Below, piece by piece: positions 28,689 to 52,200 of a DNA stretch of 64,000 nt. How positions within the stretch are numbered: position 1 is the first letter of the stretch; each line of letters begins with the position of its first letter. The stretch is from the NCBI GenBank assembly GCA_965249275.1, contig CBDFLQ010000007.1, positions 992,001 to 1,056,000 on the forward strand, given 5' to 3'. The stretch comes from Dehalococcoidia bacterium (GTDB lineage: Bacteria; Chloroflexota; Dehalococcoidia; Plut-88900). The notes below the pieces were generated by a model, which saw only the letters and a list, made by a program, of their open reading frames with translations, did no database searches and was not told where the DNA came from. The position numbers and the translations under genes were made by a program.

Positions 28689-28778
28689 GGAGGGATGGCC
28701 GAGTGGTTTAAGGCACCGGTCTTGAAAACCGGCGTGCGCGTCAGTGTACCGTGGGTTCGAATCCCACTCCCTCCGCCA
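28689..28778 (+). tRNA. tRNA-Ser (anticodon TGA)
   Basis: GGAGGGA/TCCCTCC acceptor stem, CCGGT-CTTGAAA-ACCGG anticodon arm, long variable arm, GGTTCGAATCC and encoded CCA. Confidence 0.96.
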
Positions 28779-28938
28779 CTATAACTTTTTTGACTGTCCG
28801 CTTTTTTCTCATTTCATGCTTGCTCCATAGCTAATATAGTCTCTTGTAGTGCCCTGCCCCACCCTCCTAATCTTTTGAGTTCCCACATTAAGTGTGGTAA
28901 CATTCATGGGAACATTTGGGATTTATGGAGGCATCTGA

Positions 28939-30084
28939 ACCCTATCTGCAACTCGGGTCAAGGCCCTGAAGGATCCAGGACGCTACTCCGATGGTGGCGG
29001 CCTGCACCTTTTCATCAGCAAGGCGGTGCGGAAATCTTGGGTCCTGCACATCACTGTTGATGGACGCCGGCGGGATATAGGCTTGGGCGGATATCCGTCC
29101 GTCAGCCTGGCTCAGGCTCGTGAGAAGGCGGCGGACCATAGGGCCGCAGTTGCGGAGGGTCGAGACCCCGTGGCCGAAAAGCGCGCTCCTGCCATGCCAA
29201 CCTTTAGGGAAGCCGCCTACGCCGTCCATGAGGCCAATAAGCCCCGGTGGCGCAACCCCCGGCATGCTTCAGGCTGGATTCAGACCCTGGAGCGTCATGC
29301 TATGCCTAAGTTGGGCAACACACCGCTGGACAAGATACATCGGGGAGACGTGCTACGGGTCCTCACTCCCATTTGGATGACCCGGCCCGAGACGGCCCGA
29401 AGAGTGCGTCAGCGTATGAGGGCCGTATTCCGGTGGGCCATGGCCCACGGATTCGTGGAGTCCAACCCGGCGGGTGAAGCCATCGACGGTGCATTGCCCC
29501 CCATGCCGAAGGTGAAAGCACACTTCAGGGCACTGCCCTACCAGAACGTCGGGGCCGCAATGGAAACGGTTGCAGCATCCCATGCTTCGATGTCCGCAAA
29601 GTTCTGCTTCCGATTCCTGGTTCTCACGGCGGCCCGCTCCGGCGAAGCCAGGGGCGCTACCTGGGACGAGATCGACCTCTAGGGCCAAGAATGGCGGATT
29701 TCGTCTGAGCGTATGAAGGCTGGTGTGGAACACCGCGTACCCCTCAGCGGAGAGGCACTTGACCTGCTTGGCGAAGCATCTGTCCTGCGTGAAGACACCG
29801 GCCTGGTGTTCCCGTCGCCGCTAAAGCGGGGGACGCCCATGTCCGACATGACACTGACGAAGATGCTCCGTTCCGTCGGTCTGGCGGAACGTGCCACTGT
29901 CCACGGGTTCCGCAGCAGTTTCAAGAACTGGACACTGGAACAAACGGACACCCCGTGGGTTGTTTCAGAAGCGGCTCTTGCCCACAGCCTCGGCAATACG
30001 ACCGAGCAGGCCTACGCCAGGTCAGATCTATTCGAGCGGCGCCGCACGCTGATGCAGCTGTGGGCGGATTACCTGACCGACTGA
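28939..30084 (+). pseudogene. P4-like tyrosine integrase (arm DNA-binding plus catalytic domain), disrupted
   Basis: One reading frame: TLSATRVKALK.PGRYSDGGGL, LTAARSGE, HGFRSSF, ALAH and AYARSD. Start codon lost (TGA 28936-28938) and in-frame TAG at 29680-29682. Confidence 0.88.
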
Positions 30085-31178: not shown

Positions 31179-32447
31179 TCACTGCGGCGGCATGGCCTTG
31201 GGCGAGTCCCGGTCACCGGGGGCACGCCAGGCTCGTCCCAGCGGCCCCAGTTCATCTGTGGCGACCCTGTGGGAGACCCACAGGGGGACGGTCGTTCCTT
31301 TCGCCTGCATCTCCTCCCCTGCCACGCGCAGGAAGTGGGTCGCCGCGATCTCGTCGTCGAATACGACCAGGACGTCGGGCCGAGTGCCGTGGTCGTCGGT
31401 GGGCCTGTGAGATGAGTAATAACGAAGATAGGGGGCGAGACGCTCCGACATGGTTGTTGGGCGCACGGCGCGCCTCTCCCACTCCAGGAAGAAAGGCCAG
31501 GTTGTCTCTCCTCTTCTGAGGATACCGAAGGCGTCCGGATGGACCGAGCGGATCCCGTCGCCGTGCCTGAAGTAGCGGGAGGCCCTCTTGGGTGGGTCGA
31601 GCTGGGAGACCTGCCAGCCGACCAAGACCGCCTGGGTTGTGAGGTGGGCCAGGAAGTCGTGGACGGCGGCGGTATGCTCGATGTGCCTGAGCAGTTGGCG
31701 TGTCCTTCTGCCCGTGACGCCGGTCCACTCATAGCTGTCGCCGGTGAACAGAGGGGCGGAGCTCCACCGCCTCCTGGCCAGGCCGACGGAGGTGCGGTCT
31801 CTACGGGCCAGGAGGGCCAGTCCCCGGTCGGTAGGGGCGAGGTGTCCGCCCGCGTCGCGTGGGCGGGCCACAAGCTTGTAGAATTCCAGGGGGATGACAA
31901 GCTGGGAGGCCCTCTGGTGGGAGACCCCCATCAGCCCGGCGAGCTCCGTGAGGGCGATCCAGGGCCAGTCGGCCACCAGCTCGACGGCTCGCTTCTCGGT
32001 GGCCTTGAGCATGACCGGTAGCATGTAGTCGGAGATGTCCCAGCCCCGCCCCTGGACGGTGAAGTCCGAGGGTAGCGACGCCCGCTCCGGCGCGGCCTCT
32101 TCCGGAAGGTTATCCCTCTTCTCTATCCTGTCCAGGGCCGAGCTCAGGTCGATGTCGGCCCGGACGGCGTGGGGGCTCCACACCGCTCCGTCCGGCGCCG
32201 CCACCACCTCGCTCTCCACGGCGAGGAAGGCGGGCACGGGGAAGCCCTCCAGCATCCTGCGGGAGTGCCTGAGCCGCACGGGGTCGGGCATGAGGATGAG
32301 CACGGCTCCGGGGAGCGCCGTGCCGCGCAGCCTCCACATGCGATTGGAGAAGGCCGACCTGTCGGAGGTGTTTCCCCGCCGGACGATCCCGACGGTGCGC
32401 CCATCGGGAAGGGCTACCGCAGCGTCGAGGGACAAGGACCGGTACCA
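31179..32447 (-). pseudogene. replication-relaxation family protein, 5'-truncated and fused in frame to an IS3 OrfA fragment
   Basis: wHTH, then HTAAVHDF...VHPDAFG...FFLEWER (PD-(D/E)xK-like). The first 49 aa of ORF 31179..32594 are IS-derived. Confidence 0.6.
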
Positions 32448-32700
32448 GCGGAACCCCTCCAGCACGATACGGATCTTTTCCTCCGGAGTGTACTTGCGCC
32501 GGGTTGCTGTCCTGACTCTTCGCACGAAGGACCTGGCCTCTTCTGTGCGCTCCTCAGCCGCCACTGCCTTAGTTGTGTCTGTCTGGGACATCATTGCTCC
32601 TCTCTATGAGTAATCTACCTCATCCAGGGAGCTCTCCACACCTCAACCCTCTCGACTTTTCCTACCCCATTTCGTGTCCCATTATGGCCGACGACCTACA
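32448..32700 (-). mobile_element. IS3-family left-end remnant (inverted repeat plus 5' part of orfA)
   Basis: The minus strand begins TGTAGGTCGTCGGCCATAATGGGACAC at 32700, followed by RBS GAGGAG and ...RRKYTPEEKIRIVLEGFR. Confidence 0.7.
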
Positions 32701-33231: not shown

Positions 33232-33574
33232 GAGTGAGCGCATGAGGTCGATGGCACGGTCGGTTTCGGGGCCGGGCTCGCGCGCGAACTGATGCGGCAT
33301 GCCGGGGAACGCTTCGTGTCGGCGTAGTCTCCCGCCCGAGCGTAGGACTCGGCGAATCGCTGGGGGAACTCGTGGCGGATATTGCCGTCGGCTGTCCACT
33401 GCACCACGAGCAGCGGCAGCAGGGCCACATCCTCGCCCCGACTGTCAAGGGCATTCGCAAAACGTACCACCATGTTCTTCATCAGCCTGCTAAGCTACAG
33501 TCCGGGCTGAACCCCGTCTTGCCGACTGCACAAGGGTAGGCAACAGTCGAAAAACCCGCATCGTTAAGGTCGTC

Positions 33575-34036
33575 CTACAGACGCTCCAGCAACTTTGCGA
33601 TCTCATCGGTGTGGTTCATGTCGGGTTCCCACTCGCAGATCACACTGTGTTCGTCGATGACAACTGCGGGCCTTTTCCCGTCTGACGGGTCTTTGACGTA
33701 TCTCTCTCCATCGAGAGCGGACATGCCTAGCTCAATGCCTACTCGTCGATCAGGGTCGTTCAGGACCGCGAACGGAAGCTGCTCTTTCTCGACCCACTGG
33801 CGTGCAGAATCCAAGCTTCCGTCATGGATTCCGAACAGCACGACGTTCTTCTCGGTGAACTCGGCAGCATGCTCTCGGTACCCAAGAGCCATGCGGGTTC
33901 AGTTACCACCGCCCGGACTCGTGAAGAAGTACAGCAGGACCTTTTGTCCGCGAAGACTGCTAAGGGATATCGTCTGTCCATCGCTGGCCTGAAGTGTGAA
34001 ATCGGAAATCGTCTTCCCGATGTAAGTTTCCGTCAT
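33575..34036 (-). CDS. selenocysteine-containing peroxiredoxin (BCP/AhpC-TSA fold), 153 aa
   Basis: ATG 34036 with RBS AAAGGA gives MTETYIGKTISDFTL...VLLYFFTSPGGGN-[TGA 33899-33901]-TRMALGYRE... The TGA sits at the peroxidatic Cys position and the frame continues to 33575. Confidence 0.8.
33867..33894 (-). promoter_or_regulatory. putative bacterial SECIS hairpin
   Basis: mRNA GCAUG-GCUCUUGG-GUA-CCGAGAGC-AUGC, starting 4 nt after the UGA. Confidence 0.6.
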
Positions 34037-34195
34037 CGCCGTCCTTTCCGGTGAGACTTAATAGAACCGAGGCACGCATAGCAGAACCGTTCCCCATGCA
34101 GTTGCTGGGCTGCACGGAGTATAGGCGTTTCTCACCACCGATGCACGCCTAGCTATACACGTCCGCTCGGGCGGCGAAGTGAGTGGCGCATCCTC

Positions 34196-34414
34196 TTGCG
34201 TCAGGACGTCTGTAGGTCCCAGGCGCCCAACCGGGCCGTCATCAACTACGCCGAACGCAAGGCCTCCGTGGCAGGCCGTGCGGCCTGGCTCACCGACATC
34301 GAGTACCGGCTGCTATTCGAGCTTTCGGCCAGCGCCGGGCGGGTTCTCACCCACGATCAGCTGCAGCAGCGAATCGTGGGTCCGGCGTCTTGGGAATGGC
34401 AACCCGACAGTTAG
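34196..34414 (+). pseudogene. OmpR/KdpE-type response regulator wHTH fragment
   Basis: LTDIEYRLLFELSASAGRVLTHDQL; no receiver domain. Confidence 0.6.
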
Positions 34415-34419
34415 GGGGC

Positions 34420-34575
34420 TCACACATGAGCGTCCCTATAAGCCCCACCTGCCGGGACTCGAACTGGTTGAGGCATCTCTCGACTTATGAGAACACGACC
34501 TAGATTGAAACCTCCCACCGGAAAGTTCGCTGTACCGTACGCCGTGGATCGCCTAAGAGGATTCGAACTTTATTA
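34420..34575 (+). repeat. tandem att-like sites, including the best-conserved copy
   Basis: AAAGTTCG-N16-GG-N16-CGAACTTT (34522-34571). GGA(C/T)TCGAAC at 34455 and 34559, period 104. Confidence 0.7.
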
Positions 34576-35066
34576 TGACAACTGATCGCGAATTCAGCCG
34601 GATCCCAGATCCGCCACCCACGAGTACCGCAACATCTCGTTCCTATTGCTTCTCAGGTATGACCGTAGCCGAGACCATCAGGCCCACAAGGGTGGTGTGA
34701 AGAAGCCTACTGTCATTACCGGGCCGTTGTAGCCGGTAGGCGACATGCAGATCATCACCTAGCACGCTTCGTTCGCCAGGCGAAATAGGTCTACCGAATT
34801 CCGTAAGATATGGGGGTCACTGGGCGATATTTGAGATGCTACGTGACGCGGACGTAAGTGTGACAGGCCTTTGGACGGCATGGTCGCTCACACGCCGCAT
34901 GTGCCCCTCCTGTCCCCAGTGCTGGCGGAGGCGCTCCCCACTCGTCCTGCGGGCCTTGGCCGCGAGTCGGCTCAGCCCGTCAAACCCGCAGCACGCCCTC
35001 GCACCGCGCAAGCTCCGCGTCCTGGTTGTGGAAGTGCCTGGGACACTTGCCCGTGATGCACTGCGT

Positions 35067-35948
35067 TCAGGCGAGTTCCAGCGGCAGAGACGGATCGGCG
35101 GCGTACTCCGACATTGAGGCGTCGTATACCGCGATGTCCTCGTATCCCAGCAGCGAGAGGACGAAGGCGTCGTTGGATGCGGCGATGCCCCCGCCGCAGT
35201 AGGCAACCACGCGCCGAGTCCTGTCCGCACCCGCCTCTTCAAACAATGACGCCAGCTCCTCCGCCGGGCGGTATAGGCCGGTCTCGGCATCGGTCAGCTC
35301 CACCGCCGGCACGTTAGCCGAGCCGGGGATGTGCCCGGGACGCCCATATATCCGTCCGCCATCCGCGCCCGAGTGTTGCTCCCGTCCCAGTGCGTTTATC
35401 AGGCAGCTACCATACACACCGCCGGACTCGACGAACGCCATGACCTCGTACAGGTCGGCGAACCTGGCTGCATCGACGGTCGGCGTGAAGACTGTGGCTT
35501 GGTGTGTCGCCGCATCAGTCGACACCGCCCTGCCCTCAGCGATCCAGCGACGCCAGCCGCCGTCCAGAACCGCTGCACCATGGCAGCCCATTGACCGGAA
35601 CATCCACCACAGCCTCGCGGCCCACATCGAACCTGAGCGGTCGTAAAGGATCAGCTTGGACGACTCCGAAATTCCGTGCCGTCCGGCCGCCTCGGCAAAC
35701 GCTTCAGCCAAGGGCATCATGAAGCGGAAGCGTTGATCATTATCGGAGAAGTCGCCCTGCAGATCCAGGAATCCCGCTCCGGGAACGTGTCCCGACTCGT
35801 ACTCCCCCCGTCCCGACTCCACACGATAGCCGCCGCCGTCTCGGGGGCGGAGGAAGACGGTCGTCTCGAAAACGCGGACGTCGTCGTCCCCCAGGTGTTC
35901 CGCCAACCAATCGGTCGAAACGAGGAACTCCGGATTTGCGAAGGCCAT
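35067..35948 (-). CDS. sulfurtransferase (two-domain rhodanese, SseA-like)
   Basis: LVSTDWL, GHVPGA, AARLWW, GHIPGS and YCGGGIAAS. Confidence 0.9.
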   Translation of the reverse strand: MAFANPEFLVSTDWLAEHLGDDDVRVFETTVFLRPRDGGGYRVESGRGEYESGHVPGAGFLDLQGDFSDNDQRFRFMMPLAEAFAEAAGRHGISESSKLILYDRSGSMWAARLWWMFRSMGCHGAAVLDGGWRRWIAEGRAVSTDAATHQATVFTPTVDAARFADLYEVMAFVESGGVYGSCLINALGREQHSGADGGRIYGRPGHIPGSANVPAVELTDAETGLYRPAEELASLFEEAGADRTRRVVAYCGGGIAASNDAFVLSLLGYEDIAVYDASMSEYAADPSLPLELA

Positions 35949-36029: not shown

Positions 36030-36375
36030 TTGCTCCTGTCGGAACAAGAAGGACCGGGTCAACCTGCGAAGTCCACTATCCTGAGCCTGGCTATAGCTGC
36101 GGGTCAACCTACATTTCGGAAATGGCACTGGTTCCGGTCAAGTAAGGTCTACCCAGCCGAGTTGGAACCGGCAGGGTGTTACATGACTTCTGGGGTGATT
36201 CCCAAACGGAAATCTCTTACCGAAAAGTCAGCGGTATAGCCCAACATGGTTCACGAACTTTCATCACTACGCATTGCCCAGTGGACGATCCCCTTGTTTT
36301 CGAGGAAAATCCAACTATTGCTCGACCTGCAGTTCTATCGAACGATTTGTAGGGCGTACTGAACCATTGGATGTG
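36030..36375 (+). repeat. array of four degenerate att-like sites
   Basis: Central GG at 36051, 36146, 36248 and 36353 (spacing 95, 102, 105). Arms include AAAGTCAG-N16-GG, AGTTCT-N16-GG and GG-N16-GGAACC. Confidence 0.5.
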
Positions 36376-36377
36376 AC

Positions 36378-36700
36378 CACGTTCACCTGGAGTCCACAAT
36401 GGAGCCTGCCCTGCGGTTGGAGCTTGCCAGGCGCAACGGCGTGGATTTGCCGTACGCCACGTCGGATGAGATAGCGGCCACTTATGTCTACCCCGACATC
36501 ATGATGTGGTTCGACATCCGATACGAGGCTGATAAAGTGCTGAAGACGGAGCGGGACTTCTACGATCTGACCTGCGCATTCCTGTTGAAGTAAAAGTCCC
36601 AGAATGTCGTGTATACGGAGATACAGTACGACCCCCAGATGCACATGGAGCGGGGCCTGGGTAGGGGAGTATCCATGAGGGAAGCCCCAATGGAGTGGTG
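36378..36700 (+). pseudogene. adenosine/adenine deaminase N-terminal fragment
   Basis: HVHLESTMEPALRLELARRNGV...DFYDLT...*KSQNVVYTEIQYDPQMH, with an internal TAA. Confidence 0.7.
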
Positions 36701-48596: not shown

Positions 48597-48975
48597 CTTA
48601 GCATTGGCCTCCCAGCGAAAAGTGCCCAAACAGCACACTCAACCTATGGGGGCTCGAAGTGACCATTGGCGCTAATGTGGTGATAACAGATGTGGGAACG
48701 TATACTGAATACCCACCATATTAGCTTTATATAGTGTTCCTCCCATCTCCGCCGTCAGGGACTCGAACTGAACCGTAGCTACATGGAACAATTCAGTAGA
48801 GCGATGAACTAAACCTCACCGAAAGGGTTCTACCTTCTATACGTTCGGGGTCACCTGCCCGGATTCGAAACGACAAGAACGCCTCGCCATTTATGGCAAC
48901 GTTCCTAGATTGACACAACCCGGCGAAAGGTTCTCTCTGCCGTACCGTTTGGCATGCCGACGGGCACGGAAGTTC
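48597..48975 (+). repeat. array of about four att-like sites, ~100-bp period
   Basis: Centres near 48648, 48746, 48848 and 48951. 48904-48945 vs 34499-34540 match 32/42 ungapped. GTTCT-N16-GG-N16-CGAAA at 48827-48870. Confidence 0.7.
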
Positions 48976-52156: not shown

Positions 52157-52200
52157 AAAGTTCGCAGTACCGTACACCTAGCCCCTCCCGTCCAGTTGCC
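52157..52200 (+). repeat. att-like left half-site
   Basis: AAAGTTCGCAGTACCGTAC matches 34522-34540 at 18/19. Confidence 0.65.

Follow-up and report, generated by a model that had tools for sequence, protein, structure and literature searches.

Recombinase genes that contain their own attachment site are known from archaeal viruses. Integrases of the SSV1 type, which are tyrosine recombinases, carry attP in the integrase gene and target tRNA genes, and upon integration the gene is split in its middle; unlike this, just about the last 16 codons would be exchanged in the elements described here. The closest known case is DsiB, a CcrB-family large serine recombinase (LSR) of the ssrA islands of Dehalococcoides, which we liken to our elements by description and not by sequence. 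According to McMurdie et al. (2011, PMC3146451), the 3' end of dsiB always overlaps attL and the reading frame meets its stop codon only within ssrA or in the next island; these authors proposed that the gene might be complete only on the circular form or beside an island that gives 'the requisite 3' gene fragment'. The ssrA islands resemble the elements described below in that they occur in the same class, in that an LSR gene at one end of the island points towards a small RNA gene on the opposite strand, and in that direct repeats of the 3' end of this RNA gene bound the island. Unlike DsiB, the recombinases described here are directed to the acceptor (3') end of tRNA genes (Ile, Lys, Ala) instead of ssrA, with a shared block of 9-12 nt; the peptide that forms their detachable tail is strongly conserved and its synonymous sites are frozen, and tail and pre-tail together form a 16-nt coding palindrome in some members.

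Two further systems are alike in part. SCCmec elements with CcrAB (described in part in PMC3146451) are LSR islands inserted into the conserved gene rlmH/orfX at its 3' end, with short direct repeats and tandem arrays, but there it is the 3' end of the target gene that is repeated and not that of the recombinase gene itself, and the target is not a tRNA gene. The attachment sites of phage serine integrases such as Bxb1 (in part after PMC1470463) are shorter than 50 bp and have an imperfect dyad, a central crossover and no long arms, as is the case here; their attP is intergenic, however, whereas in the family described here it would lie inside the recombinase reading frame, with a centre that mimics a tRNA end. 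Within the literature covered by our search, LSRs that target tRNA genes and have a coding-palindrome attP were not described.

The locus under study lies in a window of 64,000 nt, by which we mean the whole stretch of DNA that was analysed, from a Dehalococcoidia bacterium. The original prediction had drawn attention to perfect 8-bp inverted arms, each 16 nt from a central GG, and the sequence contains exactly these (AAAGTTCG at 34522-34529 and CGAACTTT at 34564-34571, with a 34-nt spacer and the GG at 34546-34547). The 50-bp site does exist and extends from 34522 to 34571; the start at 34499 that had been given for it adds 23 nt on the left. The exact symmetry around the GG is automatic, since it holds for any inverted repeat with an even spacer. 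Moreover, the bare palindrome is at chance level: the whole window contains 60 perfect inverted repeats with arms of at least 8 bp and spacers of 3-60 nt, compared to 52.2 +/- 6.4 in 30 first-order Markov simulations, and a 64-nt stretch folded as single-stranded DNA gave z-scores of 0.11 (plus strand) and -1.08 (minus strand) against 200 dinucleotide shuffles, which means that the hairpin is no more stable than shuffled sequence. Unlike the palindrome itself, the left arm and the sequence around it are conserved to a degree that exceeds chance.

Arm symmetry had also been expected to persist in homologous copies, and this was not what we found. Among 36 copies in the order, all eight pairs are present in the window copy only (1/36); at least five positions are paired in 15 copies and fewer in the remaining 21. 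CGAAx occurs at a spacing of 34 in 15/36 copies and the GG is central in 32/36. The family motif alone yields 5-6 bp of arm pairing, and the symmetry in the window is a shadow of the family dyad plus two chance pairs, eight out of eight being partly luck.

A structured RNA (hairpin, terminator or riboswitch platform) or a transcribed regulatory element is a highly improbable explanation of the site. It finds some backing in a paralogous copy, L001, located immediately behind a genuine cobalamin riboswitch (RF00174, 47 bits), and in short variable hairpins that can be read between units, but RNAalifold predicted 0 pairs for 33 copies, fold z-scores were 0.11, -1.08, -0.86 and -0.10, and an Rfam search of 33500-35500 at E <=10 returned nothing but a chance match to isrG, so that we found neither a conserved structure nor an Rfam family. 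Related loci are equally devoid of riboswitches (0/19), and no terminator-like site was found at the palindrome. A riboswitch-derived origin was discarded, the cobalamin aptamer being confined to L001. We likewise rejected a promoter or terminator (a scan gave 0 promoters and one terminator-like site that is unrelated, where shuffles averaged 0.6 and 0.9), an integron attC site (there is no integron integrase, the best hit to TIGR02249 scoring 74.9 bits with a cut-off of 265) and, once the coding frame had been recognized, a MITE or REP-like repeat. With regard to L001 itself, the aptamer (L001 3075-3199, minus strand, equal to C7:909574-909698; 47.2 bits) runs directly into an LSR-remnant unit, which is split by an insertion sequence of about 1.25 kb with a DUF772 and DDE_Tnp_1 transposase; no B12-related gene follows downstream, and a gene with a His_Phos_1 domain (CobC-like) lies divergently upstream.

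Read coverage added little. Coverage of 34219-34820 by contigs of two RNA libraries was 0-2.6, which is uninformative on expression, and two joints (32473>34388, X1, and 28779>35544) were left out of the evidence, as their shorter side measures just 24 letters. Next to the site, 33480-34240 shows a depth of 560-1100 in contigs of two metagenome runs and of 35-92 in an RNA-library run, compared to about 10-130 beside it, with contig ends and loose ends at 33995, 34146 and 34238. This stretch is single-copy in the genome, and its open reading frame at 33609-33992 (plus strand, 127 aa) had no Pfam match. A mobile element that is widely shared, or one that is highly expressed, could lie here.

The original prediction missed that both arms are coding, that they belong to the remnant of a minus-strand recombinase gene, that this recombinase is an LSR, and that the copy is degenerate. 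The minus strand of 34500-34604 encodes ...NKVRILLGDPRRTVQRTFRWEVSI*, and BLASTP aligned this peptide with residues 551-584 of the 584-residue recombinase of locus L126 in a relative (15/34 identical, E 8e-6), the alignment reaching the C-terminus. On the minus strand the right arm reads K-V-(R) and the left arm R-T-(F), and the GG is the complement of the CC in the Pro codon of G-D-P. We consider it likely that the site in the window is the decayed last 35 or so codons of a minus-strand LSR gene that carried attP in its 3' end. The features are listed below by window position, with putative roles worded as such.

34500..34604, minus strand: probable 3'-terminal remnant of an LSR gene, DPAEFAISCHNKVRILLGDPRRTVQRTFRWEVSI followed by a stop codon (from translation, codon map and BLASTP).
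34500..34502, minus strand: stop codon TAG of the remnant (CTA on the plus strand), at the same codon position in 74/84 copies.
34514..34540, minus strand: conserved 27-nt core, codons T-V-Q-R-T-F-R-W-E, with 3 mismatches to the family consensus.
34525..34540, no strand assigned: putative tail-side half-site arm (P'), GTTCGCTGTACCGTAC on the plus strand, compared with GTTCGCAGTACAGTAC in the distal junction L024 and in L086.
34541..34563, no strand assigned: centre; GTGGATCGCCT can be aligned with the block (GGCCCACCA or ACGGCTCACCA) that other copies share with tRNA 3' ends.
34564..34571, no strand assigned: right arm CGAACTTT, pre-tail codons K-V-(R), putative remainder of the body-side half-site P.
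34421..34472, minus strand: possible second remnant without a tail, QPVRVPAGG followed by unrelated AYRDAHV and a stop codon; GCCCCACCTGCCGGGACTCGAACTGG on the plus strand.
34196..34414, plus strand: truncated fragment of an OmpR-type response regulator that adjoins the remnants, given for context only.

The left arm noticed originally (34522-34529) is thus the outer end of the tail-side arm P'. The second remnant at 34421-34472 shows a weak resemblance to the recombinase pre-tail that might reflect homology, and the response-regulator fragment matches Pfam Trans_reg_C at E 7.3e-4, which is below the curated cut-off and covers only profile positions 2-36 of 77. More decayed recombinase tails, oriented like 34500-34604 and therefore also on the minus strand, were observed at 48903-48961 (...GMPNGTAERTFRRVVSI*) and 52157-52184 (...GGARCTVLRTLN*). 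Furthermore, a 390-nt repeat with 82.6% identity, located at window positions 36162-36517 and at C7:1066787-1067176, holds a very decayed tail-like stretch (window 36201-36261), which at both places lies 1.7-2.3 kb past a stronger unit.

The part of the alignment with L126 that precedes the tail is weak (about 5/20 identities), and because of this the right half in the window could be something other than recombinase pre-tail, for example an unrecognisable piece of a tRNA. The original prediction had derived the right half from a tRNA T-arm. In its fullest form this explanation holds that the right half is a displaced tRNA fragment of T-arm and acceptor and that the site is an att junction of an island with a tyrosine integrase of the P4 type, which we regard as quite unlikely. 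On our reading, the minus-strand succession GTTCGAAT+CCTCT+TAGGCGA+T+CCA is spaced exactly as the 3' half of a tRNA would be (T-loop, then 5 nt, 7 nt, T and CCA). At a distance of 5.7 kb from the site, a tRNA-Ser gene has a P4-type integrase pseudogene next to it, and the P arms of such islands hold related copies. On the other hand, near-identity to the 3' part of a resident tRNA was not found: the 24-mer GTTCGAATCCTCTTAGGCGATCCA matches the 44 tRNAs and one tmRNA of the genome only in the 10-11 nt of the T-loop consensus, and it occurs in none of 300 other genomes of the class at up to three mismatches. A profile of the island P arm retrieved three genomic copies and nothing at 34572-34790 even at E 100, and the arm-type repeats of these islands (TGTGGTAA, TGTGGGAA and CGTAGCTAA) are absent from the site. 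The LSR half-site, too, has a conserved outer end that reads GTTCG, the sequence that recalls a T-loop; in the window, GGATTCGAAC occupies 34559-34568, and the outer end of the body-side half-site P is GTTCG in the recombinase sense. The general idea of an integration site, in the form of an att-type site of a tRNA-targeting element family, holds in part, and the derivation from a T-arm is unsupported. For the same two reasons, namely the profile that misses the site and the differing arm-type repeats, we also rejected the site as the outer P arm of the tRNA-Ser islands.

These islands deserve a short description. The tRNA-Ser(tga) gene is followed by a P4-type tyrosine integrase gene (window 28689-30084; Arm-DNA-bind_3, Phage_int_M and Phage_integrase domains) with an in-frame stop at 29680-29682, and an intact paralog with 87-88% identity adjoins tRNA-Ser(cga). 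Repeats TGTGGTAA/TGTGGGAA and CGTAGCTAA are common to both tRNA-Ser island arms. An exact repeat of the tRNA-Ser 3' end was found about 44 kb downstream and outside the window (C7:1064743-1064770; L002 2245-2263), which places the site at 34522-34571 inside a tRNA-Ser island or island array. Behind the integrase, on the minus strand of window 31179-32594, are a gene with a Replic_Relax domain and small HTH genes, a module that is about 90% identical at the protein level in an island of genome G002 (L070) at the same tRNA-Ser, with similarity ending near window 32456. In a synteny comparison at tRNA-Ser(tga), genomes G002 and G007 had related integrase islands, with no island end or unit within 17 kb.

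The site is one member of a family of repeats. The recommendation to use it as a seed for motif searches was a good one. BLAST and nhmmer detected further copies in the same genome, and by DNA search 13 of 61 related genomes contain copies, among them all eight other genomes of the genus. The 27-nt core with up to three mismatches gave 42 matches in 11/12 genomes of the order (none for a reversed control pattern), and a 26-nt pattern had 55 exact matches in a collection of species-representative genomes, in MAG records named Dehalococcoidia or Chloroflexota bacterium. Altogether, 84 distinct copies encode ...G-G-P-x-(C/R)-T-V-L-R-T-F-R-W-E-V-x-(I/L), with T-V-L-R-T-F-R-W nearly invariant and a stop codon at the same position in 74 of them; read on the other strand, this stop is the YTA/TCA that is conserved left of the core. 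Codons 6-11 hardly vary at their synonymous sites (GTA in 76/76 Val, CGA in 82/82 Arg, ACT in 80/83 Thr, TTT in 79/82 Phe and CGG in 76/83 Arg), whereas nearby codons vary freely, with Pro encoded by CCT (33), CCA (23) or CCG (18) and Val by GTC (30), GTG (21) or GTT (16). Fixed synonymous sites between free flanking codons indicate that a function at the DNA level overlaps the coding sequence.

Most copies of the family are short remnants and the long ones are LSRs. The protein of L126, with 584 aa, contains the Resolvase, Recombinase and Zn_ribbon_recom domains and ends in ...VLSTVKSGGPKCTVLRTFRWEVQI*; all three Pfam domains are present in 4/4 LSR reading frames of relatives, that of L126 included. 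Full-length LSR genes also occur as convergent pairs whose 3' ends overlap by about 50 nt (L130, L132, L129 and L133 in G011 and G061), and several of these LSRs read SGPP where the att centre otherwise encodes SGGP, which amounts to a reversed block. Tandem units of the family lie 66-104 nt apart.

Three among the 12 LSR loci (L126-L137) have a recombinase gene that overlaps the 3' end of a convergent tRNA gene, namely L127 with tRNA-Ile(gat), L135 with tRNA-Lys(ttt) and L136 with tRNA-Ala(ggc), so that, as described for DsiB, the recombinase reading frame runs into an RNA gene on the opposite strand. These reading frames diverge from the family directly after G-G-P, G-E-P or G-G and then continue as antisense tRNA (...WTRTRDL..., ...CGIRTHD...). 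At the tRNA-Lys junction of G011 (L135) the sequence in the tRNA sense is ...CACGGCTCACCA-TGA-CGTACTGTACTGCGAAC-TCGCCC..., followed by antisense recombinase, and the distal junction (L024), 28 kb downstream on the same strand, reads GTTCGCAGTACAGTAC-ACC-ACGGCTCACCA and carries the tail; this tRNA-Lys element occupies about 492.8-520.9 kb of G011. A second pair was found at L090, where tRNA-Ile (...GGGCCCACCA) is followed after about 1 kb by the tail and GGCCCACCA. The short identities, ACGGCTCACCA at both ends in G011 and GGCCCACCA at both ends in L090, thus amount to two attL/attR pairs only; for the LSR loci at tRNA-Ile (L127) and tRNA-Ala (L136) no distal tail partner was among the listed tail copies. 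The original prediction had named alleles split at the GG as the thing to look for, and these two pairs (L135/L024 at tRNA-Lys, and tRNA-Ile plus tail in L090) are split in the corresponding centre, the centre that holds the GG being the counterpart of a 9-12-nt block common to tRNA 3' ends. Across the family, the block after the tail is GGCCCACCA in 35/84 copies and GGCTCACCA in 2/84; tRNA-Ile, Lys-ctt, Met and Lys-ttt have these sequences at their 3' ends.

Two observations concern related junctions. The approximately 1-kb element in L090 (1200-2294, minus strand), between tRNA-Ile and the tail with GGCCCACCA, has two small reading frames and lacks a recombinase gene, which makes it either a reduced element or a hitch-hiker. 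Outside the window, at C7:939098-939190, the sequence AAA-CGTACTGTACT...CTCGCCCGTTCAGGGCGACC comes after a genuine tRNA-Arg(ccg) and resembles what would remain of a convergent recombinase junction of the attL type whose gene is missing.

In complete form the site is a dyad, made up of the arm GTTCGCAGTACrGTAC, a centre of about 19 nt with the tRNA-like block, and the arm GTACTGTACTGCGAAC; in the recombinase sense the arms read V-R-S-T-V and T-V-L-R-T. Such a dyad of about 40-50 bp was found whole in L086 (16-nt arms, one mismatch, 19-nt centre) and in L085 (three mismatches), and the window copy, 50 bp overall, keeps only the 8-bp outer arms. By eye the dyad symmetry is weak in L126, the best intact example. 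Both arms are present in 2/84 copies and the other 82 have the tail-side arm only, as expected of junctions.

We propose that the recombinase gene of this Dehalococcoidia LSR family would contain attP in its 3' end, with the pre-tail (V-R-S-T-V...) encoding one half-site, the tail (T-V-L-R-T-F) encoding the other, and the centre (G-G/E-P codons) being the antisense of a tRNA acceptor 3' end. Insertion into the 3' end of a tRNA gene would part the two half-sites; after integration the recombinase body would read into the antisense tRNA, and the native tail (xCTVLRTFRWEVxx-stop) would stay at the far end of the island beside the repeat of the tRNA 3' end. In the circular form, a joint in the shared ACGGCTCACCA block would restore ...RHGEPWCTVLRTFRW..., that is body plus tail. 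Judging from the sequence, the recombinase would bind the arms as half-sites of attP, and strand exchange would fall in the shared block of 9-12 nt. The arms seen in the window would then be the outer ends of the two half-sites and the GG would lie in the tRNA-like centre, the place of exchange. It counts against the LSR model that it does not account for the SGPP C-termini, for the tandem units, or for the constant placement of copies within the arms of tyrosine-integrase islands.

The site in the window might still work, either as a live attR of an excisable element or as a docking site (pseudo-attB or attP-like) that is used in trans, but we consider this unlikely. Much of the tail side is indeed kept, with 24/27 core bases and the stop codon in place; solo tails with frozen synonymous sites occur in many species, which suggests maintenance or recent spread; and class-A copies (tail units) are found at a fixed distance of exactly 248-250 nt from a displaced tRNA-Ser or tRNA-Ala fragment in seven arms of tyrosine-integrase islands. 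The window copy has nevertheless exchanged the codon of the invariant Leu for Gln, its body-side arm shares just the five bases CGAAC with the canonical arm, at a spacing of 34 instead of 40-41, and its centre GTGGATCGCCT has no counterpart among the tRNA 3' ends of its own genome. No LSR gene was detected in this genome either (tblastn at E<1e-3; Pfam Recombinase 0 matches); the assembly being 87% complete, such a gene could be unassembled. The substituted tail arm, the body arm cut to CGAAC and the lack of a detected LSR gene are the reasons why the window copy appears to be a degenerate and inactive orphan relic of the LSR family within an island that starts at tRNA-Ser(tga).

For the window this means that a 'functional palindrome' becomes an annotated relic, a recombinase gene end in a tRNA-Ser island. 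The design in which the recombinase end is a docking site for tRNA genes appears common in Dehalococcoidia and dead in the window copy, and the tail core with a tRNA 3' end after it may serve as a simple marker of island junctions in Dehalococcoidia genomes. The oddity of DsiB, noted once for ssrA islands, would then also hold for elements that target tRNA genes, in at least about 45 MAG species, and the detached '3' gene fragment' would be a conserved peptide with codons fixed at the DNA level. An integration reaction that swaps the C-terminus of a serine integrase is directly testable, and small tRNA-directed att sites might be of use as recombination tools. As a tentative and rather doubtful extension, the last 16 or so residues of the LSR would exist only in a circular or tandem-array element and would be replaced by antisense-tRNA residues on integration, so that the exchangeable tail could be a sensor of the integration state that sets directionality or activity, similar to an RDF-like switch, and orphan tails could re-arm tail-less neighbours or serve as landing pads. 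If this sensor reading is true, the coding palindrome would be protein tail and binding site at once.
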